Shown here piece after piece: positions 3,025 to 36,367 of a stretch of DNA of 36,367 bases. Source of the DNA: Alphaproteobacteria bacterium (GTDB lineage Bacteria > Pseudomonadota > Alphaproteobacteria > Rs-D84); contig JAFOXU010000018.1 in NCBI GenBank assembly GCA_017425725.1, forward strand, positions 1 through 36,367. The letters run 5' to 3'. The notes beneath the pieces are model-generated. The model saw only the letters and a list, made by a program, of their open reading frames with translations. It was not told the origin of the DNA and made no database searches. Both the position numbers and the translations under genes were made by a program. Positions within the stretch are counted from its first letter, which is position 1. Each line of letters begins with the position of its first letter.

Positions 3025-3450
3025 TTATTGATTAAGTGTTTGTTTTTCAAAATGTAATTTAATACGGTTGTTTTTCCATTCGTCTTTTGTCATTGACCAT
3101 ATTGCCAATGATTTGGGAGTTTGACGCAAGGTTCCAGTGTTTATAAACCCTACGCCTTTCACGAATCTCTGTGCCTGGGCATTATCTTCTTCAATGTACG
3201 TATTTACGATACTGCCCATGCTAAATAATGTTGACATCACGATAAATATTATCTCTGGATTACATACAAACTTGTCCAGTATTACGTGATCATAGTTGAT
3301 TGTGTCGCCATGCACTGTAATCAGGCCGTAATATCTATCATCTTCGTATATTATCTGACACTGTGGATCAAACACAATATGTGGTAAATATTTACGCATA
3401 ATGCTTGCCGCCTGAAAAAATGCAGGTGCGTCACTACCAACTAATATCAT
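3025..3450 (-). CDS. GNAT-family N-acetyltransferase-like protein (moron between terminase and capsid genes)
   Basis: 141 aa. The C-terminal block EEDNAQAQRFVKGVGFINTG resembles the GNAT acetyl-CoA-binding helix/strand (N..A..ly.k.GF...G). It overlaps the terminase stop by 17 nt. Confidence 0.5.
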   Translation of the reverse strand: MILVGSDAPAFFQAASIMRKYLPHIVFDPQCQIIYEDDRYYGLITVHGDTINYDHVILDKFVCNPEIIFIVMSTLFSMGSIVNTYIEEDNAQAQRFVKGVGFINTGTLRQTPKSLAIWSMTKDEWKNNRIKLHFEKQTLNQ

Positions 3451-4906
3451 TGCTCTTAACCCTTACTGTTAAATCGTCATCATCGACTAATTGCATACGA
3501 TTTGCTTCAAGCCCTTTCTTAATATCGGCTGAAACATTTTCTTGCATACGTTCACGTTTTTCTGCTTCCGTCAACACACGCTTTTCATCACGGTCTTTGT
3601 AAATGCTCTGGCACAAATACAAGAACGCCTTGCCACCATGTGAATATTCGTCATGGACAATGTTCTTTGTGTCTAACACACCGTCTTTGTAATCATAACG
3701 CATATTCATAATGCATTCGATACCGCGTACCAAGTCCTTGTCAATATCGATAATTGGTATCATAGACCTTGCAATATCGATTTGTTCTTGTTCGCGTATG
3801 CGTTGCAGTGTTATGCAATTAAAACCAATCTCGCGCATTCTGGCAACTCTGGTATTACCGTATGCCCATTCTGTGTTAACACCGTCATGTGGAAAGAATA
3901 CTGTGTCATATTTGTATTCTTTGCTTTTTAACTGGTCAACCCAATAAGGCAATGCTTTCATGGTATCTTCCATGTAATTGATGACTTTAACCCGTCCATC
4001 AATCCATTGGTAAAACCAGATTGCAGTTGCGTCTGTATGCCCTATATCCCATGCTGTATAAACGGGATAGCGGTTGTCATACTGAATACTCTGCTTTGTA
4101 GCATTAGGATATTTAGCAAATTCAACCGCTAACACACTGCCTCGCGCCTCTTCGCCAAATTCCCCATACAAAAATCGTGTCTGCTCGTGCGCCGGCAATT
4201 CCTTCAAACTGTCGATATAATCATCTGGTAAGTATTCCAGATTATCCAAAGGATTAAGGCGTACGTTCGCATATATCTTTTTATCCAACTGTTTTTCTGG
4301 ATCAAGTGGCGATTGAAACAAGAAATGTTCTTTGTACGTCCAGTGTCCTTTGTGTGGTGGATTCTCAATTACGATTTCCATCAACTTTAAATCGCGATCA
4401 TATTTCCAGTGTTTTACTTTCTGCGCTAAACGTGTGCGCAACTTCTGTAATGCCTCATAATTAACTTCTGATGCTTCGTCAATCAGTATTGTGGCATATT
4501 CAGTACCCAATAACTTTTCAACTTCTTGTTCGTTTCCTATGGCTCTAAAATGGATTTCTGAACCATTTGGCAATGTAAATATGTTGGTACTGTTATTCAT
4601 ACCACCATTACACCAATGCTCATAAAGCCTTGGATAATATAAACGCAATAACTTTGGCATTGTATCCAGTATTATCGCATTACGCACCGCAGTAAAAGTA
4701 TCACGCGCAATCAAATGCCGTGATCCTGGATAATAAACTGCTCTTTTTAATAATTTCCTACACCCACGAAACGTCTTACTTGAACGCGAACCACCATAAA
4801 GCAATAATCTGCGTACATCGTTATTGTGCTTAAAGCAATTATCAAACTTTTCTATGCGTTCATCTCTGTCTGCTATCTGTTCGGGGGTTAATATGATATT
4901 GCTCAT
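3434..4906 (-). CDS. terL: Terminase large subunit
   Basis: 490 aa. Walker A-like LLYGGSRSSKT and Walker B-like TILIDEASE. The C-terminal nuclease-like half carries acidic motifs (WDIGHTDATA..., FPHDG). ATGA overlap with the upstream small-terminase-like gene. Confidence 0.9.
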   Translation of the reverse strand: MSNIILTPEQIADRDERIEKFDNCFKHNNDVRRLLLYGGSRSSKTFRGCRKLLKRAVYYPGSRHLIARDTFTAVRNAIILDTMPKLLRLYYPRLYEHWCNGGMNNSTNIFTLPNGSEIHFRAIGNEQEVEKLLGTEYATILIDEASEVNYEALQKLRTRLAQKVKHWKYDRDLKLMEIVIENPPHKGHWTYKEHFLFQSPLDPEKQLDKKIYANVRLNPLDNLEYLPDDYIDSLKELPAHEQTRFLYGEFGEEARGSVLAVEFAKYPNATKQSIQYDNRYPVYTAWDIGHTDATAIWFYQWIDGRVKVINYMEDTMKALPYWVDQLKSKEYKYDTVFFPHDGVNTEWAYGNTRVARMREIGFNCITLQRIREQEQIDIARSMIPIIDIDKDLVRGIECIMNMRYDYKDGVLDTKNIVHDEYSHGGKAFLYLCQSIYKDRDEKRVLTEAEKRERMQENVSADIKKGLEANRMQLVDDDDLTVRVKSNDISW

Positions 4907-6406: not shown

Positions 6407-6979
6407 TTATTTGTCTTCTAACGCATCAACGCGCTTAACAACGCTGTCCAACTTTTCTGCAAACATAGACAGTGCTGATAAAATCTTATCTTCCTTGCTG
6501 ATTTCTGGCTTTTCTTCTTCTTTTTCTATAACAATGCCATCAATCGCATTTAACTTTTCAATATCTTCCAGATTTAATTTCAACGAAAAATCTGATATAA
6601 GTGGCCAATATTCTGGATGGCTTTCTGGTAATCTAATTAGGTTTTTGTTGTGTTCTATACGATCACGAAAGTTTTGAATTAACATCATTTCTTCGCGACT
6701 GTATTCATTGCGGTGCAAAGGTTGATGTTTTTCAAAGTCTTTCCATGTTTTTGCGTAACGAACCTGATGTGCCATTGTGACTTCTACGTCCATCCAATCG
6801 GCACGCCCTGTGTCACTGTTGTTAATCAACATAAATGGCAACAGAATGTAATTGTCTTTTTCGTTTTGATATATTGCACGCCAATAAAACTGTGGATGTA
6901 AATCGGTTTCGCCACGGATACGTATATCGTCTGAATCATAATGTTGTTTGTCTGACATAGTTGCTCTAATCCTCGTCAT
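6407..6979 (-). CDS. Hypothetical protein (190 aa; alternative ATG at 6958 gives 183 aa)
   Basis: Long ORF on the late strand. The ATG at 6958 has a GAGGA upstream and avoids overlap with the preceding gene. No recognisable motifs. Confidence 0.6.
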   Translation of the reverse strand: MTRIRATMSDKQHYDSDDIRIRGETDLHPQFYWRAIYQNEKDNYILLPFMLINNSDTGRADWMDVEVTMAHQVRYAKTWKDFEKHQPLHRNEYSREEMMLIQNFRDRIEHNKNLIRLPESHPEYWPLISDFSLKLNLEDIEKLNAIDGIVIEKEEEKPEISKEDKILSALSMFAEKLDSVVKRVDALEDK

Positions 6980-7259
6980 ATTTTAAAAGCAGTCTTTCGG
7001 CTGCTTGTTGTTTTAACTTTTCCGGTATCTTTCTGCCGTGCAGGCGCATGGCAAATCTAAACTTACCGGTTAAATTCTGCTTGATGTCGGCTTTTTCTAC
7101 GGATGCTTTAACAATACGATCAACTTCTTCATCGCGTCCGCGTGCTTGCCCTTGTTTAATGTATTCGTTGTGCAACATTAAATCTTCAACGGTCACGTCT
7201 TCGGGCAGTAATTGTTGGTTTGTTTCAAAACAGAACTCTTGTAATTCTTGATCTGTCAT
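6966..7259 (-). CDS. Hypothetical protein, 97 aa
   Basis: ORF coupled by ATGA overlap to the GroES-like gene. Charged, helical character. Confidence 0.55.
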   Translation of the reverse strand: MTDQELQEFCFETNQQLLPEDVTVEDLMLHNEYIKQGQARGRDEEVDRIVKASVEKADIKQNLTGKFRFAMRLHGRKIPEKLKQQAAERLLLKYDED

Positions 7260-7480
7260 TCACGTACCATCAATACGTTTTCGTCAAATATAAACGTAAT
7301 GCCTTCGCCAACGTATGCGGTCTTTTTTATATACCCAACAATATCGCCGACCTTATAATCTTTTCCGCACTTATCGCCTTTTGCGATCACTTTGGCAAAT
7401 GTTAAATCAGATACGTCAAATGCATCAGTATCTGGCAATGGTTCAATCTGAACCAAATCTTTCAATACTTTATATTGCAT
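7256..7480 (-). CDS. GroES/Cpn10-like co-chaperonin, shortened (74 aa)
   Basis: KVLKDLVQIE resembles GroES RPLHDRVIVK. KVGDIV is identical to GroES KVGDIV. C-terminal ENVLMV resembles SDILAIV. The mobile-loop region is much reduced. AAAGGA SD. It overlaps the GroEL-like stop by 11 nt. Confidence 0.5.
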   Translation of the reverse strand: MQYKVLKDLVQIEPLPDTDAFDVSDLTFAKVIAKGDKCGKDYKVGDIVGYIKKTAYVGEGITFIFDENVLMVRE

Positions 7481-8747
7481 AGTGTGTCCTTTTGATTAAA
7501 ATCGCTTGCTCTACTGCGGTCTTATACGTTTGTAAAACCAAGTTAATCGGTTCTATAACGTTTGCCGACACATTCTTAACGTTTACGGCTTTGCGTATTA
7601 CATGCCATACTTTATGCTTTGTTGGGCTAAACGCTTCTAATGCCTGTCCTGCGCCCGGAACATATCCGTCATATGCTTGAATCACGGCTAATATCGCGTC
7701 TTCCAAACGGTCTTTTAATTCAACCATCTGTGCGGACGTTTCTGCACCAACATAAATCTTTGCAATCTTGCTCTCTAAACGTGCCAATCTTTCTTTGCAC
7801 CATGCTTTTTCGGCACCTGATAATGTCTTTTCTTCGTTCTTGATTGCTTCCACTAATTGCTTTGTTTCCGCGTTGGCACTGTATTCAAATGTCGCCATAC
7901 GCTTTGTAACATGAACCTTTGTAATAAGCGGTGCTATGATCGATAAATCAGCCGTTAAATCTGCACGCTTTGCACCAATAAGGCTTGGTGTTATGTTACA
8001 GAATTGACCAACACCGTTAATGTGGTTTTGAACCAATGATGCTAATGCCTGTTCATCGCATTGACCAATACAGATAAATGGTCTGCCTGCTTTCATGGCC
8101 TCGCTTGCCACCGGCGCAATGTCAGACAAAGTCAGATATTCTTTTACCAACACCACCGGATTAACCATTTCCACACCGGTCTTGGTGTTTACAAATGCCT
8201 GATTGGAATATCCTGCGTCTAAAACATAGCCCTTAATCTGTTCGGCTGTAATACCATCTTGTTCGCGTTCTTCAACAATGTAATGACCGTCTTTTCCATT
8301 ACGCGCAACAACTTCTGCTACGGCATGTGATATTTTCTTGTCGCCGTTTGATGACACCATCGCCAAATTAAACAATGTGTCATAGTTTATTTTGGTCTTG
8401 GCTATGTTTTTCAAAAACTTTTCTAATTCGCCTTCCAAAGATTGCAATACATACAAATCTTTCAGATCATAATCAATCAAATGTGCTAATAATACTGCTA
8501 CGGACGTTGTGCCATCGCCAACTTCACGAACTTGACGTTTGCATACCTGACGTACAAAATTCGCGCCTGCGCTTTGATCTGTCAAAGATTGTGATACTTT
8601 GTATCCGTCTTTGGTTAATATCGTTTCGGCTTTATTGGTATTTGGATTATTTGTTGTGATCGAAACCAATTTACCATTTGGGCCTAATGTTGAACCAATA
8701 ATTTTAACCGCACGTTTAATTTGTGCTTTGATTCTTATATTGCTCAT
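7470..8747 (-). CDS. GroEL/Cpn60-family chaperonin homologue, compact (425 aa versus about 548)
   Basis: These blocks match GroEL in order:
- TLGPNGK (TLGPKGR)
- TKDGYKV (TKDGVSV)
- GDGTTS (GDGTTT)
- VSSNGD (ISANSD)
- DAGYSNQAFVN (DRGYLSPYFIN)
- KAGRPFICIG (KAGKPLLIIA)
- KIYVGAETSAQMVELKDRLEDAI ([22 protein letters not shown])
- PGAGQAL (AGGGVAL). Confidence 0.85.
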   Translation of the reverse strand: MSNIRIKAQIKRAVKIIGSTLGPNGKLVSITTNNPNTNKAETILTKDGYKVSQSLTDQSAGANFVRQVCKRQVREVGDGTTSVAVLLAHLIDYDLKDLYVLQSLEGELEKFLKNIAKTKINYDTLFNLAMVSSNGDKKISHAVAEVVARNGKDGHYIVEEREQDGITAEQIKGYVLDAGYSNQAFVNTKTGVEMVNPVVLVKEYLTLSDIAPVASEAMKAGRPFICIGQCDEQALASLVQNHINGVGQFCNITPSLIGAKRADLTADLSIIAPLITKVHVTKRMATFEYSANAETKQLVEAIKNEEKTLSGAEKAWCKERLARLESKIAKIYVGAETSAQMVELKDRLEDAILAVIQAYDGYVPGAGQALEAFSPTKHKVWHVIRKAVNVKNVSANVIEPINLVLQTYKTAVEQAILIKRTHYAI

Positions 8748-9121: not shown

Positions 9122-9163
9122 AATTTTATAAAAAATCCCTATATTCTGCGACAAACCACGCGA

Positions 9164-9208
9164 CTACGGATCAGAAGGTTGAGGGTTCGAATCCTTCTGG
9201 GCGCGCCA
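9164..9208 (+). other. 3-prime fragment of a tRNA gene (anticodon-loop-like CTACGGA to CCA end), not a complete tRNA; probable att core
   Basis: T-arm GAGGG-TTCGAAT-CCTTC, acceptor 3-prime strand TGGGCGC, discriminator G, then CCA. The matching 5-prime acceptor strand GCGCCCA and a D-arm are absent upstream. ACG sits at the anticodon position, suggesting an Arg tRNA (inference). Confidence 0.7.
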
Positions 9209-9401: not shown

Positions 9402-10418
9402 CTATTTATCAAACAATGCAGTTAATGCTGCTTGCGATTCATTATTGACCAAGTGTGCATACTTGGTTGTGATCGATATATCACTGTGTCCTAAAACGTT
9501 CTGTACCACACGCAGGTTTCCTGTCTTTCGCAATAGCCATGTGGCTGTCGTGTGGCGTAATGTATGAAAATTTCTGTATGGCACCTTTGCCCTTTCAAAT
9601 GCAGCATGCCATGCCATTTTTATATCACGTATCTTATGTCCTTTGTACGTAAACACGTATTCGTGATCACGTGGCAAAGATAATAATAATTGCTTTAACT
9701 GTGCAACCATTGGTACAGAATGCGGATTGCCGTCTTTGCCCATGTAAATAATCTGGTTGTTATCCCAATCTATCTGATCCCATTTAAGCGACAATATACG
9801 ACCACGTCTTAAACCGGTATAAACAGCCGTCAGTATAATCGGCTTTAAATGTTCCGCAGACGCATCGATAACTTTCTGCAATTCATCCCAGTCTTTGAAA
9901 TACTTAATGTTTTCTTTTGGTTCTTTTAATCGGAAAGACAATATCTTGAAATCAGGTATGCGACAATCCCATCTGTTCTTTGCCCTGGTGCAGATTGCCG
10001 ACAATAAACATAAATATCTGTTGGCTGTCGCATTTGATCTACCAGCATTGGTAAACGTGGTCATCAAATGGTTAACATCGTTCTTTGTAATCTGTGATAA
10101 TAATATATCCCCGTCAATGATAGTTAACAGCCGTCTTAACTTGCTAAACACATCAACGGAATAAGATAAATTCTGCCCATATTCTGTCCACCACTTTGCA
10201 CATGCAGAATCAAGTGTGATTTCGTGTGTGACGGCTGGGGAATTACGTATAGCGTTTATGCGTTTAATGCAGTATTCTTGTGCGCGTTCGATGTCTGTTT
10301 CGCCACTAGATTCGCGAATGATAACTCTGCGTCCTTCAACAACGAACGAGATATACGCGTGCCAGATTTCGCCACGTTTGTATAATCTGTATGGTGCATT
10401 TGTGTTATTGTTTGCCAT
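9402..10418 (-). CDS. int: Tyrosine recombinase / phage integrase
   Basis: 338 aa. The C-terminal catalytic block is HTLRHTTATWLLRKTGNLRVVQNVLGHSDISITTKYAHL (R..H..R...H..Y pattern). The N-terminal arm-binding-like motif is YKRGEIWHAYISF. It lies next to attP. Confidence 0.92.
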   Translation of the reverse strand: MANNNTNAPYRLYKRGEIWHAYISFVVEGRRVIIRESSGETDIERAQEYCIKRINAIRNSPAVTHEITLDSACAKWWTEYGQNLSYSVDVFSKLRRLLTIIDGDILLSQITKNDVNHLMTTFTNAGRSNATANRYLCLLSAICTRAKNRWDCRIPDFKILSFRLKEPKENIKYFKDWDELQKVIDASAEHLKPIILTAVYTGLRRGRILSLKWDQIDWDNNQIIYMGKDGNPHSVPMVAQLKQLLLSLPRDHEYVFTYKGHKIRDIKMAWHAAFERAKVPYRNFHTLRHTTATWLLRKTGNLRVVQNVLGHSDISITTKYAHLVNNESQAALTALFDK

Positions 10419-11164: not shown

Positions 11165-11938
11165 TTATTGTTGTCCTAGTGTGCAGAATATACCGCATTC
11201 AACATAGCACGATTTTGGTTTTCTGCCCACTGCATTTTCTGGTAATTCGTCTAAAAAGATATGTCTTGGTTCATTGCCTGCACCTAAATCAACCAGACGG
11301 CAACCCAATCTGCGTGATTGTTCTGCTCTCTGCTTGAATATTTCAGGGAAGTGTTTGCGAACCATTTGCCAATACCACACTGAGCCAGATTTTACACAGC
11401 CAATGCAGTTTGCATTTGGAAATTCAAACTTGGTGTATATCTCTGGCAATTTTATACCTGCCATTTCCAATTCGTTGAAACAGCGGTGTTTATCCCACCC
11501 AGCATCTATCAGCGGACAAATCAGTTTGTATCCCTTGTTCTTTGGTGCAGAATTAAATCTATCCTGTCGTTGTTTTTCTTCCACTGTATAGCCCATAACA
11601 ATCGCATCTGTATCTTTATTAAAGCCGTTGTCGTTTTCCCATTGTGAGCGTGCATTTTGCTTTAATTCCAGTGTGCAAGGTGCGAAGTGTGGTGTGGACA
11701 TAACTCCGTATTCATCAAACACCTTTGTAATATCGCAGTGCTTAAAACAGGGATTAGTAGCACTTTCAATTTTGATACCAAGCCACTTTTCACAATCTTC
11801 CAAGAACCGTTTATTGTCTTCGTGTTCGTTTATAACAGGGTTATTTACAACACGGATATTCTCTCTGCCATATTTTTCAATGGTTAGTTTCGTGGCACAG
11901 GCACTCGCTGCACCGCAAGAAAACCAACACACTATCAT
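11165..11938 (-). CDS. PAPS-reductase-family / adenine-nucleotide alpha-hydrolase-like protein
   Basis: 257 aa. N-terminal PP-loop-like VCWFSCGAASACAT. Central APCTLELK...DAIVMGYTVEE. C-terminal NCIGCVKSG cysteine pair. This order is typical of the PAPS_reduct fold. Confidence 0.6.
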   Translation of the reverse strand: MIVCWFSCGAASACATKLTIEKYGRENIRVVNNPVINEHEDNKRFLEDCEKWLGIKIESATNPCFKHCDITKVFDEYGVMSTPHFAPCTLELKQNARSQWENDNGFNKDTDAIVMGYTVEEKQRQDRFNSAPKNKGYKLICPLIDAGWDKHRCFNELEMAGIKLPEIYTKFEFPNANCIGCVKSGSVWYWQMVRKHFPEIFKQRAEQSRRLGCRLVDLGAGNEPRHIFLDELPENAVGRKPKSCYVECGIFCTLGQQ

Positions 11939-12616: not shown

Positions 12617-13405
12617 CTATGCCTCCATTTGTAAATCATTCAAAATTTCGGCTTTACGTGCAGATGCCAACGGTATCAATTCATTGATATTCGGATTACC
12701 TTTCTGACTGTTAAGTATTTCTGAAATGTTGGCCAATGTGGTGCAACGTTCCATTTCGCCACGGAAAGCATTAACCGACATCCAATCGTCTGGACGCGCT
12801 GTCGCAGGTGCAACAAATGGAATTTCATCGCCAACCAGGTCTTCTATTTGTTTATCGGCTTTCTTTGGTGTTGGTTTTTCTGTTTTAAGCGGTGTTTTTG
12901 TGCCAAAGGTATAAACTGTCTTTCCTTTGCCGTTCACGATTTCCAGCGCGATTATTTCGCGGTTATCGTTGTATTCAATCTTTGATACAGAAAACTTTTC
13001 ATTACATGTATATTTTTGGCCAAATTGTTTTATTTCAACATAATCAGATGAAATCCAAATAAATGGCGCAGTATATAATTCACGACCAATTCCCCATTTA
13101 AACCCGGCGCGTTTGAAAGCGTCTGATGCTTCGCCTTTCTTTTCGTTGCCTTCGCCGTCTTCACGTGATTCAATACCGCAATCTTGTTTCCAAACCCATT
13201 GACCCTTGGTTTGTTCCCAAACACCAATCTTGCAATACATATTTCCTTTGATTTCTTCGTATTCACACTGCCAATTATTCGCACCAAACTCTTCATCCAA
13301 CACGTCCATGTCGGTACGTGCGGTTTTATATAACAATGCAACCAGGCCATTTTGCTTAACCTGTTTTACTTTAACTTCGATCTCGTTCGCTTTAAGTAAT
13401 CTCAT
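12617..13405 (-). CDS. Rad52/Sak-family single-strand annealing protein
   Basis: MDVLDEEFGANNWQCEYEE..., then KKGEASDAFKRAGFKWGIGRELY, matches the Rad52/22 and Sak signature (fG..gW..., A.K.A...fG.G..LY). Confidence 0.75.
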   Translation of the reverse strand: MRLLKANEIEVKVKQVKQNGLVALLYKTARTDMDVLDEEFGANNWQCEYEEIKGNMYCKIGVWEQTKGQWVWKQDCGIESREDGEGNEKKGEASDAFKRAGFKWGIGRELYTAPFIWISSDYVEIKQFGQKYTCNEKFSVSKIEYNDNREIIALEIVNGKGKTVYTFGTKTPLKTEKPTPKKADKQIEDLVGDEIPFVAPATARPDDWMSVNAFRGEMERCTTLANISEILNSQKGNPNINELIPLASARKAEILNDLQMEA

Positions 13406-32028: not shown

Positions 32029-34026
32029 TTAATTTAAACTGCCCAAGTTAGTGTCAACAGAAGCATCCGGATGTAATGCACCATACAACGCCAATTCGAT
32101 TTCTGCATCCAATTCGCGTTCTTTGCGGTCTGCATCCTGTTTCATAATGCTGACTTTTGCTTTGTTGATTTCTGTGTCACTTACAATCTTTGCGATTTCT
32201 GCATCTGCACGCTTGTTTTCCAACGCAACGGCTGTTGCATCCTTTTCGCGTGTGTTCTGTAATTCTACGGCTGATTTCTGCGCTTCTAAATCCAGTTTCT
32301 TTGCGTCTAACTGCAATTTGGCTTGTTCGTTCTGTGCCTTGATCATATCTGGTGTTGGTTGTTGTGGTTGTGCCATACGCTGTTGATATGCTGCTATCGC
32401 ATTATCAATCGCTTCTTCCATTTGCTGTTCCACAAATGCACCAACCTTGTATCCACGGATCATTGACATAATTGCAGGTTTTGCAATTATCGCCATTTCT
32501 GGTATCTGTTGAACCATGCCTGATACTGCTTGAAGTTGATTGAAAACATTTGTCCATAACTCACTGATATTAGCCTTATAATCGCTATCGTAATAAGAAC
32601 GAACGTCTTCCAACGATATTGTCAAACGTGTATTTTTCAGCGATTCTGTCTTTAACAATTCTAATGCCTGCATAACCAATGGCATTGATTGTTCGCTGTA
32701 TTCGATTGTGGAATATGTCAACAATGATAATGTTTCAAATGTCTGGCATATAATGTCGCATGCAATACGGATTGTGTCTTGAACGAAATAAATCGCGTCT
32801 TTTTGGTCGTCTTGCAAACGCATTGTTCCAAACGAACCTTTCAAACGATTTGTACCATATGCTTCTTGTGCTTTTGTTTCGCCTTCTAACACATCGTATA
32901 TGCCCAAACCTTTCTGTATGTCGCTGATATATTCGTCACGTACAACTTTCAAAGATTCCAATGCCTTAACAATATTGTCTTGTGGCAACATCCAAATCGA
33001 AGATTCAATGCCTTTGCCTTCCAACTTTTCAACGTTTTTAAGACCAATCAATGAATTGTCGTTATCTGCATCAAACAATTTACCGAAATCTGCGATAGAC
33101 GCATCATAACCACCAGCAACACGCAAAGAATCTTTGATGCGTGTGATTTTTTGGTTGATTTTATCAACGGCTTTATACTGTTCGATATATTGTGCATGAC
33201 GTGATACTGGAATCGTGCTGTCTGTAAATTCGTCATAAGATAATGGTTTTGCACACGGAAATTCAATGTCATATGGATAATCGTATGTTGCTAATATCTT
33301 TTTATATGATGGGTGGAATATATAAACCTTGCGATCCCATTTATCCCATATTTCATACACGGATATTGTCTTGTCATCACGGTCTTTTTCGTCTATAAGA
33401 CCTGCTTTTTCCAATTCGTCCAATTCTTCATCAGATACAGATTCCGGCAATCTGATGTTTTTGAATTGCCTACGTACATCTTCTTCGGTCATACGTAATC
33501 TACGTGCAACCCAACCGCAATCATCCCAATGTTTTGATTTTTGCCATATAAAATCGTCATGATCTACGTAATCAAATGTAATATCTTCTTTTAACAAGCC
33601 TTCCTGTGTGTAATAAGGCGCATAAGATACCCAAATGATACCAAAGTTGCTTAATTCAGCGTCTAACTTTGCATATGACAAAGCCCTCTTAAACTGAGGG
33701 CTTTCTGTTAACTTCGCTGTGGTTCTTTCCAAGATCATGGATGCCACTCTTGCAACCTGATCGTCATCACGGTTTGTCCGGTCAACCTGAACCTTTGGAA
33801 TAAACGGTAATATGAACGGTAAACGCACTGACACGTTGCGGTAAAGCAAGTTATATCCCTTGCATTCATCGTCAAGACGTGCTTTCTTATTTTCAGTGCT
33901 AGTAAATGCTTGGTTGCGATAACGGCGTGTTATATCGCGGGCGGATTTACGCCATTTCTTGTAAATTGGATTGCTGTATGCAATTTCCAACTGTTTCTGC
34001 CAATAATCTTGTTTTTTATCTGCCAT
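32029..34026 (-). CDS. Portal (head-to-tail connector) protein, 665 aa
   Basis: Size fits a portal. The N-terminal W..R..RYRNQ...YNLLYRNVSVRLPFILPFIPKVQV pattern is typical of portal families. There is a long C-terminal coiled coil (barrel-like). No profile search was run. Confidence 0.6.
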   Translation of the reverse strand: MADKKQDYWQKQLEIAYSNPIYKKWRKSARDITRRYRNQAFTSTENKKARLDDECKGYNLLYRNVSVRLPFILPFIPKVQVDRTNRDDDQVARVASMILERTTAKLTESPQFKRALSYAKLDAELSNFGIIWVSYAPYYTQEGLLKEDITFDYVDHDDFIWQKSKHWDDCGWVARRLRMTEEDVRRQFKNIRLPESVSDEELDELEKAGLIDEKDRDDKTISVYEIWDKWDRKVYIFHPSYKKILATYDYPYDIEFPCAKPLSYDEFTDSTIPVSRHAQYIEQYKAVDKINQKITRIKDSLRVAGGYDASIADFGKLFDADNDNSLIGLKNVEKLEGKGIESSIWMLPQDNIVKALESLKVVRDEYISDIQKGLGIYDVLEGETKAQEAYGTNRLKGSFGTMRLQDDQKDAIYFVQDTIRIACDIICQTFETLSLLTYSTIEYSEQSMPLVMQALELLKTESLKNTRLTISLEDVRSYYDSDYKANISELWTNVFNQLQAVSGMVQQIPEMAIIAKPAIMSMIRGYKVGAFVEQQMEEAIDNAIAAYQQRMAQPQQPTPDMIKAQNEQAKLQLDAKKLDLEAQKSAVELQNTREKDATAVALENKRADAEIAKIVSDTEINKAKVSIMKQDADRKERELDAEIELALYGALHPDASVDTNLGSLN

Positions 34027-35168: not shown

Positions 35169-36367
35169 TTAAATTGCTGTCTTGCTTATATTAAATAACA
35201 ACATCAAATCAACCATTTGATGCTGTATTCCTTTTACGTTTGCTGTGATACGAACGCTAAAATTATGTCCTAACCCAGACGCAGAATAAGTATCTACAAA
35301 CGCTGTTTTATCACCATAACCGCCAGTCCAATATTCTGTATCCCAATATGCAGTGCCTGGCGTTGGATCGTTTGGTGTTACCTTGTCAGACCAATAAAAA
35401 CCTGTATCTGCTATTGACCCAGGAACCCCCGAAGTATCAACCCAGTTGTAATAAGACTGGTTTTCAAAATCTTTGTATGTTTCAAATCCTAAATTGATTT
35501 TTTCCGATGCAGAATGTCTTACTTGCAACATATTAAGACGTTTAAGGAAATCTGACCCACAATTATTATAACTTGTCCAAACTTCAAGTGGAATAAAGTT
35601 ATTGTCAGTTTCAGACATTCCGTATTGGTATATACCGTCTTCCATGCCAAACAATAAACTTCCGTTTAATATGCACATAGTATATGAATTTATACCGCTA
35701 AACTGTGACCATTTACCGCTTGTTATATTCATTACGGCTTGGACAAATGTGTTTCCGCCTTGTGGTATATTAAACAGAACAAAATCTTCACTTGGTACCA
35801 CTAATCCCATAAAACCGAATAAAGTTCCAAACTTCGTGGCTTGGTCTAATACCCATGTGTTGATTCTTTGGCTGAATATAAACTGTTCGTTTTGGTTTTC
35901 GCCATTTGCAAAGATACTGTGGGCGGATATGAAACCTTTGTTGGTCATTATGATTAAATCCCCAGACCAGTTAATAAATGGTGTCTTACCCAGCGGATAA
36001 CCTGTCTGATAAATACCATTAAACATTATATTGTCTGGATCATCTAAATCATTACCGCTATAAACAATCGCTTCGCCCTGTGTGGTCAAAAACCCAATAT
36101 AAGAATTAAGATTCATTCCACTATCGCGCGATATATTAAATGCCGCGATAATCTTGCCACCTTTTTTTGGTGTTCCACTAGATGCAGCAATATCGAACGA
36201 TTTCATATCGTTGATACCCTGGACATAACCAACTGGCAAATACCAAACGTTCAAATCTGTTCCAAACCCAGCGCAAACTTGTGCGTTTAATGTCGCAACC
36301 CAATCAAATATGATGCTGCTCAAACCTGTGCCACCAACGTACCAGTCTTGTATTGTGACAGTTTGTG
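35169..36367 (-). CDS. 3-prime part of the 538-aa structural protein begun at 559 (beta-rich, possibly tail tubular/nozzle-like)
   Basis: The frame is open through the terminal repeat. It joins 1..559 in frame on the circular map. The Met at 36323 used by the ORF track is internal. Confidence 0.8.
   Translation of the reverse strand, partial: QTVTIQDWYVGGTGLSSIIFDWVATLNAQVCAGFGTDLNVWYLPVGYVQGINDMKSFDIAASSGTPKKGGKIIAAFNISRDSGMNLNSYIGFLTTQGEAIVYSGNDLDDPDNIMFNGIYQTGYPLGKTPFINWSGDLIIMTNKGFISAHSIFANGENQNEQFIFSQRINTWVLDQATKFGTLFGFMGLVVPSEDFVLFNIPQGGNTFVQAVMNITSGKWSQFSGINSYTMCILNGSLLFGMEDGIYQYGMSETDNNFIPLEVWTSYNNCGSDFLKRLNMLQVRHSASEKINLGFETYKDFENQSYYNWVDTSGVPGSIADTGFYWSDKVTPNDPTPGTAYWDTEYWTGGYGDKTAFVDTYSASGLGHNFSVRITANVKGIQHQMVDLMLLFNISKTAI
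36227..36367 (+). repeat. Terminal direct repeat, copy 2 (identical to 1-141)
   Basis: Same 141 bases as 1-141. 141 equals a common maximum assembler k-mer, so this is most simply a circular-contig overlap. Confidence 0.95.

Follow-up and report, generated by a model that had tools for sequence, protein, structure and literature searches.

A putative, strongly reduced group I chaperonin pair in a 36-kb temperate phage genome

Two overlapping genes ahead of the head genes

Contig JAFOXU010000018.1 of the alphaproteobacterial assembly GCA_017425725.1 was analysed over its full 36,367 nucleotides (nt) and is called the window here. It carries two overlapping genes for proteins of 425 and 74 amino acids (aa), both labelled 'hypothetical protein' at NCBI (MBQ1996904.1 and MBQ1996903.1; Alphaproteobacteria metagenome-assembled genome, MAG). 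A sequence-only reading of this DNA had described them as a miniaturised GroEL-like and GroES-like pair lying ahead of the head genes of a temperate phage, and we found both open reading frames (ORFs) where it had placed them (Table 1). The setting was likewise confirmed: the window is the genome of a temperate phage, with genes for an integrase, an Erf-type annealing protein, the terminase large subunit (TerL), head, portal and tail proteins and an amidase-like protein. We consider it probable that the two genes constitute a group I chaperonin system that is carried by the phage and strongly reduced, in which an ATP-driven Cpn60 ring would be closed by a cognate Cpn10 lid.

The 425-aa and 74-aa genes overlap by 11 nt, and an AAGGA Shine-Dalgarno sequence lies 6 nt 5' of the 74-aa ATG, within the 3' end of the Cpn60 gene. 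Both features were kept in 13 of 13 related loci checked (L003-L014), where the 74-aa gene again lies directly 3' of the compact Cpn60 gene, bearing out the earlier suggestion of translational coupling. The 74-aa family comprised 57 protein clusters at 73-93% identity. The median ratio of nonsynonymous to synonymous change (dN/dS) in this ORF was ~0.10 (pS 0.67 v pN 0.14), with 34, 22 and 67 variable sites at the first, second and third codon positions. Thus, the 74-aa ORF is a real gene under strong purifying selection.

The pair opens a conserved block that leads into the terminase and major head genes. The 74-aa gene ends in an ATGA stop/start overlap with the next ORF, extending the coupled block in that direction, and the order Cpn60-74/75-97/98-190/191-361/367-119/121-TerL (product lengths in aa) was common to the window and two related loci, L003 and L004. 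The Cpn60 gene keeps its place ahead of the genes for TerL and the major head protein.

Table 1. Features of the window, and segments of E. coli GroEL that are missing from the 425-aa protein
Feature	Coordinates	Strand	Comment
Cpn60 gene, 425 aa	7470..8747	-	compact group I chaperonin (Cpn60/GroEL family), ATG start
Cpn10/GroES-like gene, 74 aa	7256..7480	-	divergent putative lid
Coupling junction	7470..7491	-	AAGGA Shine-Dalgarno 7491-7487; 74-aa ATG 7480-7478; Cpn60 stop TAA 7472-7470
ATGA stop/start overlap	7256..7259	-	end of 74-aa gene and start of conserved 97-aa ORF (6966-7259)
ORF, 97 aa	6966-7259	-	between chaperonin pair and terminase genes
ORF, 190 aa	6407-6979	-	between chaperonin pair and terminase genes
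ORF, 367 aa	5283-6386	-	between chaperonin pair and terminase genes
Terminase large subunit	3434-4906
Major head protein, 322 aa	1955-2923
Portal	32029-34026
Tyrosine integrase	9402-10418	-
PAPS (phosphoadenosine phosphosulfate) reductase-like	11165-11938	-	PHROG 424, E 2e-40
Erf-type annealing protein	12617-13405
Deletion	3-12 (E. coli GroEL numbering)		N-terminus
Deletion	62-65 (E. coli GroEL numbering)
Deletion	110-119 (E. coli GroEL numbering)		equatorial, beside A108/A109 ring contact
Deletion	298-318 (E. coli GroEL numbering)		apical
Deletion	424-444 and 461-486 (E. coli GroEL numbering)		C-terminal equatorial
Deletion	522-548 (E. coli GroEL numbering)		tail including GGM repeats

A compact member of the Cpn60 family

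The 425-aa protein matched Pfam PF00118 (Cpn60_TCP1) over residues 15-369 at 72.1 bits, well above the cut-off of 34.3 and as the sequence-only reading had anticipated, and PHROG 5725 'chaperonin groEL' at E 1e-55. The NCBIfam GroEL models TIGR02348 and PRK12849 gave 128-132 bits and did not reach their cut-offs of 352-582. On these profile scores we class the protein as a divergent member of the Cpn60 family and exclude a canonical GroEL. Its closest sequence matches in the PDB were GroELs (E 1e-32 to 1e-20), and hhalign aligned residues 5-372 of the family profile to residues 15-421 of a GroEL profile with a probability of 100 (E 8e-43). The GroEL hallmark motifs that had been picked out beforehand are present, namely GDGTT(S) at residues 77-82, LEDAIL at 348-353 (D350 aligned with GroEL D398) and 'LIGAKRAD', the counterpart of GFGDRRK.

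Modelling of the monomer, proposed earlier as a check, returned all three chaperonin domains. The AlphaFold2 (AF2) model (pLDDT 89.6, pTM 0.77) contained equatorial, intermediate and apical domains; its best PDB matches in Foldseek were all group I chaperonin subunits (GroEL/Cpn60/Hsp60, TMq up to 0.85), and it resembled GroES-bound conformers (TM 0.82-0.85) far more than apo conformers (~0.55). These results support a genuine yet reduced Cpn60. The likeness of a segment, 'LQTYKTAVE', to CCT-gamma raised a group II or chimeric origin, which we rejected because the whole-protein profile and the fold match group I and the CCT-gamma match spans just 26 residues (E 0.02).

To map the deletions we aligned the protein with E. 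coli GroEL in MAFFT L-INS-i and hhalign; the 548-aa reference sequence was entered by hand and aligns with retrieved GroELs at 61-65% identity, and E. coli numbering is used throughout (Table 1). The protein has ~120 residues fewer than GroEL (~22% of the polypeptide), in agreement with the length deficit first estimated. Losses beyond the GFGDRRK block and within the C-terminal equatorial segment had been located correctly by eye; the 10-residue loss at 110-119 had been overlooked. The protein stops at the equivalent of GroEL residue 521 and has no GGM tail, as claimed, and several other viral GroELs also end without one. Its stem-loop is 5 residues longer than that of GroEL. The last equatorial helix is retained, 'VIEPINLVLQTYKTAVEQAILIKR' aligning to GroEL 487-517 (hhalign E 0.003). 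Default MAFFT had instead placed this C-terminal 'VIEP...' helix at GroEL 446-470, a placement we rejected because it scored E 0.27 in hhalign v 0.003, CCT-gamma matches the helix, and L-INS-i agreed with 487-517.

Two side observations concern this helix. 'VIEPINLVLQTYKTAVEQAILIKR' (7473-7550, minus strand, residues 396-421) is nearer to the CCT-gamma sequence 'GIWEPLAVKLQTYKTAVETAVLLLR' (E 0.02) than to GroEL, and a Glu occupies the position of GroEL D495, as in the CCT-gamma sequence ('WEP').

Residues were compared across 21 family members, diverged down to 46% identity. In the ATP site T30, L31, G32, P33, K51, D52, G53, D87, G88, T89, T90 and D398 are unchanged, most of them invariant; T91 is Ser throughout, G414-G415-G416 has become G-A/G-G, and D495 is Glu. 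The adenine-contacting loop at 479-481 is the sole element of the site to have been deleted. By this comparison the catalytic ATP core is intact. The surface between rings fared differently. Within the set of GroEL back-to-back contacts considered (K105, A108, A109, E434, R452, E461, S463, V464), E434, E461, S463 and V464 are deleted and the positions of A108, A109 and R452 vary within the family, which speaks against a double ring of the GroEL type. The R197-E386 salt bridge between subunits is also absent (Ala/Ser and Thr/Ser at the two positions), and with the loss of the 479-481 loop this means that the ATPase cycle and allostery could differ from those of GroEL or be impaired. In the apical groove Y199, F204, L259, V263 and N265 are kept, and L234, L237 and Y203 are all Ala; this Ala is invariant at 203 and 237 and occurs in 19 of 21 members at 234.

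Losses on this scale could mean that a GroEL has decayed into the 425-aa protein, which would then neither form rings nor cycle ATP and would be kept as a monomeric holdase, scaffold or decoy. Among the missing ~22% of the polypeptide are a portion of the equatorial domain, the 479-481 loop, the R197-E386 pair and the C-terminal tail, all of which would fit decay, but catalytic and nucleotide-binding residues that stay essentially invariant at such divergence do not. All three domains are moreover modelled confidently, the stem-loop and last equatorial helix that build the contacts within a ring are retained, and a lid gene under purifying selection has been co-retained. We therefore regard decay as very improbable.

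The compact Cpn60 family comprised 56 clusters of 418-441 aa at 46-92% identity, on contigs of ~30-38 kb and including six IMG/VR contigs; below it came a gap, with ordinary GroELs at ~30% identity. The carrier genome records were a Candidatus Enterousia MAG, uncultured Alphaproteobacteria or proteobacteria, and one Christensenellaceae MAG, which was probably mis-binned. Some members lay on contigs of 140-275 kb, indicating integrated prophages. Other viral GroEL loci that we retrieved encoded complete proteins of 482-553 aa, with the Cpn10 gene either upstream (GroES>GroEL) or downstream (GroEL>GroES), and viral chaperonin models in BFVD were 511-609 aa long. Viral GroELs of 482, 490 and 494 aa have smaller deletions in the same segments (~301-319, 428-439, 464-486 and the tail), so that the 425-aa family appears as the extreme of a reduction series and not as an isolated oddity.

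Five of these loci, all from IMG/VR (L033, L034, L036, L038 and L051), belong to a distinct viral lineage with a 482-aa GroEL lacking 301-319, 428-439, 466-474 and the tail. In L033 the GroEL gene is followed by a bona fide Cpn10 of 118 aa (Cpn10 hidden Markov model (HMM), E 1e-11), which also weakly matched the HMM of the 74-aa family (15.7 bits; E 3.9e-5 when a few dozen ORFs were searched). This 482-aa GroEL and 118-aa Cpn10 lineage may be an evolutionary intermediate toward the compact pair. Separately, in the crAss-like phage cr108_1 (L001, 4421-4699) a 92-aa 'hypothetical protein' gene overlaps the end of the 494-aa GroEL gene. Its product, unmatched by Pfam Cpn10 and by the HMMs built here, may be another unrecognised divergent co-chaperonin.

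The 74-aa protein and its remote Cpn10 homology

The 74-aa protein had no direct Cpn10 match in Pfam, PHROGs or NCBIfam. PF00166, named in the sequence-only reading as the search that should identify it, matched neither this protein nor 31 family members, even at E values up to 10, a result that goes part of the way toward the refutation envisaged in that reading; the homology described below comes from profile-profile and fold comparison. Neither phmmer against the PDB, nor the family profile against PDB sequences, nor tblastn against phage genomes gave anything meaningful, and matches to a K+ channel, a snake lectin and an RNA ligase in direct searches were dismissed as chance.

Fold comparison pointed to Cpn10. 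The AF2 model of the 74-aa protein is an all-beta barrel (pLDDT 80), whose top 24 PDB matches in Foldseek were all Cpn10/Hsp10/GroES or T4 gp31 (TMq 0.63-0.76, probability 1.00). The E-values of these matches were modest (1e-3 to 1e-1), and just one of five AF2 models was confident, the other four having a pLDDT near 50.

Profile comparison led to the same family through intermediates. A HMMER scan of 1.84 billion representatives recovered only four small relatives outside the 74-aa family (E 2e-7 to 2e-4), with N-termini resembling GroES ('MKPIRDNVIVKP'). P0182, from the set used as a bridge, matches Pfam Cpn10 over its full length (E 0.004). Aligned with hhalign, the 74-aa family matched the bridge set (probability 99.1%, E 3.8e-19), the bridge set matched an enlarged Cpn10 alignment (96.5%, E 7.5e-10), and family plus bridge matched Cpn10 over the full length (94.6%, E 6.9e-8; reversed-sequence decoy, E 0.5); the family alone reached just 20-60% probability. 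The Cpn10 alignment included four cellular GroES sequences that were entered by hand, and the remainder were tool-derived and PF00166-positive. In the resulting alignment, which also covers the N-terminal strand, the KVGDIV at residues 43-48 falls on the KVGDIV of GroES. Both this motif and a shortened mobile loop had been pointed out before, and the loop indeed has ~9 residues fewer than that of E. coli GroES; there is no roof hairpin. The loop reads PDTDAFDVSDLTF, with F21, S24 and D25 invariant, and does not have the canonical Gly followed by three hydrophobic residues (G-[IVL]3). We conclude that a Cpn10 fold and remote Cpn10 homology are supported for the 74-aa protein by profile-profile and fold comparison.

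A small beta-barrel with a GroES-like fold need not be a co-chaperonin, given that this fold is common and occurs also in alcohol-dehydrogenase-type enzymes, which appeared lower in the fold list. The 74-aa protein might then be an unrelated morphogenesis protein that owes its likeness to GroES to convergence or to an artefact of modelling, a reading in keeping with the four poor models and the missing direct profile match. It would leave unexplained why the top 24 fold matches are exclusively Cpn10 or gp31, why every step of the profile chain is significant when the reversed decoy is not, why P0182 matches Pfam Cpn10 from end to end, why the alignment runs the full length with the N-terminal strand and KVGD motif included, and why the gene obligately adjoins a Cpn60 gene. 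We judge convergence or artefact distinctly unlikely.

The nearest outside relatives, P0180 (88 aa) and P0182 (80 aa), are GroES-like proteins, and genes of this type (L052, 399-665; L053, 740-982; L054, 809-1051) lie on short metagenomic contigs with no adjacent Cpn60, directly after an ORF that by eye resembles a terminase large subunit. That upstream ORF had no GroEL match in L052-L054. These loci would represent a GroES-only arrangement within a head-morphogenesis module.

The GroES-only arrangement is typical of phages that use host GroEL, and it raises the question of whether the two products in the window act together. If they did not, the 74-aa protein would hijack host GroEL in the manner of gp31, and the 425-aa protein would be a lid-free holdase or foldase for a late protein, for example a lysin; the window does have an amidase-like gene (35169-36323), and those phage chaperonins that have been characterised work without a co-chaperonin (PMC9598537, PMC7185714). 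Linkage and coupling of the genes through an 11-nt overlap in all 13 related loci argue otherwise, as do the GroEL>GroES operons with a recognisable Cpn10 in related viral loci. Moreover, groove residues that bind the GroES loop have changed together (L234A, L237A, Y203A), and the non-canonical loop of the 74-aa protein is unlikely to suit a standard host GroEL. Separate action of the two proteins is, on balance, unlikely.

Proposed function, neighbouring features and known chaperonins

We thus favour the reduced chaperonin system. The three-domain fold, stem-loop and last equatorial helix are kept, suggesting that what is needed for ATP binding and hydrolysis and for building a ring has been retained, and the 425-aa Cpn60 would most likely assemble into an ATP-driven, GroEL-type ring. 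Because most ring-joining elements are deleted and the remaining contact positions are unconserved in the family, a single heptameric ring is probable. The 74-aa protein would serve as a cognate, roofless lid, its synthesis matched to that of the Cpn60 by translational coupling. Three residues of the apical groove have changed in concert to Ala, which suggests a docking site remodelled for this lid, and the short, aromatic-containing lid loop is presumably co-adapted to it.

The pair would be transcribed at the start of the morphogenesis block and would fold one or more late phage proteins. With the pair consistently placed ahead of the terminase and major head genes, the 322-aa major head protein is the obvious candidate substrate, and the occurrence of lid relatives next to a terminase-like ORF (by eye) would tie the 74-aa family to head morphogenesis. 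The phage might thereby be independent of host GroEL/ES or add to it. The 'self-contained capsid-folding module' of the sequence-only reading is a putative function, deduced from gene position only.

Several results weigh against such a system. The GroEL model cut-offs are not reached, and the adenine-contacting loop and the R197-E386 bridge are lost from the Cpn60; the lid has no direct Cpn10 match, a single confident model, modest fold E-values, a weak profile match when taken alone and a loop of unusual composition. In addition, the chaperonins of phages EL, OBP and AR9 are full-length and lid-independent, and were assayed on endolysin and not on a capsid protein (PMC9598537). A more specific proposal goes further: that this is the smallest natural group I system, a self-sufficient single-ring cage of 425-aa subunits, free of the ring-ring interface, the apical segment 298-318 and the C-terminal tail, with a 74-aa roofless lid, whose short aromatic loop sits in a remodelled groove, and that it folds the phage's own head protein. 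This we put forward tentatively, as a possibility that is somewhat doubtful in its entirety.

If active, the pair would be a naturally minimised GroEL/ES, its subunit reduced by ~22% and its lid by about a quarter of the length. It would offer a natural test of whether productive folding needs a double ring and inter-ring allostery, of the importance of the GGM tail, and of how much mobile loop and roof are required for encapsulation. Were the more specific, minimal-chamber proposal true, it would reveal which GroEL/ES elements are dispensable for encapsulated folding. As a compact, orthogonal folding module, an active pair might also find use in protein expression. Full virus-encoded chaperonin systems would be extended from phages of >60-70 kb to small temperate phages, whose hosts are uncultured gut Alphaproteobacteria (Candidatus Enterousia and relatives).

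Several neighbouring features were also recorded. The 97-aa, 190-aa and 367-aa ORFs between the pair and the terminase genes had no Pfam or PHROG match, and their order and size are conserved in the related phages L003 and L004. The 97-aa and 190-aa ORFs are tied to the pair through overlapping stop/start codons and could be additional parts of a chaperonin module. The PAPS reductase-like gene sits in the early or recombination region, beside the Erf-type annealing protein.

Upstream of the Cpn60 gene, a promoter-like site on the minus strand (TTGAAA-16-TATACT, 10/12) is followed by a terminator-like hairpin (window 9059-9032 and 8917-8893); the hairpin is strong, carries a T-run and lies ~145 nt 5' of the Cpn60 start codon. 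This layout resembles a late promoter with a transcript that requires antitermination. An Rfam search of the 650 nt upstream of the gene gave only scores below or at noise.

Between the integrase and Cpn60 genes, ~60 nt on the plus strand (9147-9208) correspond to the 3' part of a tRNA, with a T-arm (GGTTCGAATCC), acceptor strand and CCA and without the 5' half; ARAGORN found no complete tRNA there. The phage probably integrates at a tRNA, with this stretch as its attP core. Direct repeats of 'GTGCAGATTTTGTGC' on either side of the stretch, at ~9335-9320 and 9120-9105, may serve as arm-type sites for the integrase.

Phage chaperonins have been described in a range of genomes. The sequence-only reading had confined phage GroELs to jumbo phages, never with a co-chaperonin, a view contradicted by several lines of evidence. 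GroEL homologues are present in 222 phage records of INPHARED, among them 60-kb Flavobacterium, 73-kb Cellulophaga and ~100-kb crAss-like phages, and Flavobacterium phage vB_FspP_elemoE has an annotated GroEL (520 aa) followed by a GroES (83 aa). Marine et al. 2017 found GroEL>GroES and GroES>GroEL operons to be common in viromes, with some viral GroES lacking a roof hairpin and 23% deviating in the mobile-loop motif (PMC5649160), and according to Bracher et al. 2020 certain phages encode a GroES homologue as well as a GroEL homologue (PMC7185714). There is thus already documentation of phage operons in which GroEL precedes GroES, of phage GroES without a roof and of GroEL in 60-100-kb phages. 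What is new here is the degree of reduction, the setting in a 36-kb temperate phage and the predicted single-ring architecture. A literature search returned no paper on a ~425-aa Cpn60 or a 74-aa Cpn10, and blastn of the locus against phage genomes gave no match. Judged by the predicted proteins, this is the most reduced phage chaperonin pair among those compared here.

The closest parallels are the viral GroEL>GroES operons of marine and freshwater phages (PMC5649160), exemplified by elemoE and the IMG/VR loci L033-L038, in which a Cpn60 gene is likewise followed by an abutting or overlapping Cpn10 gene. The Cpn60s are 24-31% identical to the 425-aa protein and have also lost the GGM tail, the elemoE GroES has lost the roof hairpin too, and the L033 GroEL has partial deletions in the same segments (301-319, 428-439, 466-474). 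In contrast to these, the 425-aa Cpn60 is 57-95 residues shorter, with an extra deletion at 110-119 and far larger losses across 424-486, and their lids are clear PF00166 members whereas the 74-aa lid falls under the Pfam Cpn10 threshold. The genomes that carry the operons of Marine et al. were inferred to exceed 70 kb (PMC5649160); the carrier here is a 36-kb temperate phage.

Relative to E. coli GroEL/GroES, the three-domain subunit fold is shared (TM 0.76-0.82 to 1aon_A and 5opx_A), as are D52, D87, T89-T91, D398 and a GGG-type loop, and there is a Cpn10-fold partner with a KVGDIV strand. The 425-aa protein is, however, only ~21-24% identical to E. coli GroEL, and ~120 Cpn60 residues have been lost, with most inter-ring contacts, the 479-481 loop, the GGM tail and the R197-E386 pair. 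L234, L237 and Y203 are Ala, the lid has neither a roof hairpin nor ~9 of the mobile-loop residues, and the gene order is reversed (EL then ES).

Like EL gp146 (Pseudomonas), OBP gp246 and AR9 gp228 (Bacillus), the 425-aa protein is a phage GroEL homologue. The OBP and AR9 chaperonins are heptamers with one ring, and that of EL comes apart into single rings (PMC9598537, PMC7185714), a state that is only predicted here, and OBP is likewise without the R197-E386 pair (PMC9598537). Those three are full-length and come from jumbo phages (for the AR9 monomer, 61.4 kDa, PMC9598537, and 562 aa in BFVD), with no adjacent co-chaperonin gene and no co-chaperonin requirement, whereas the Cpn60 of the window has 425 aa, a 36-kb temperate phage as its carrier and a coupled lid gene.

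The putative lid in turn shares with T4 gp31 and RB49 CocO a Cpn10 fold without a roof hairpin (TMq 0.75 to T4 gp31, 1g31_A). Both of those proteins take part in head morphogenesis (PMC5649160). T4 gp31 has 111 aa and a longer mobile loop and uses host GroEL; unlike it, the 74-aa protein has a shortened loop, and its gene has a phage Cpn60 immediately upstream.

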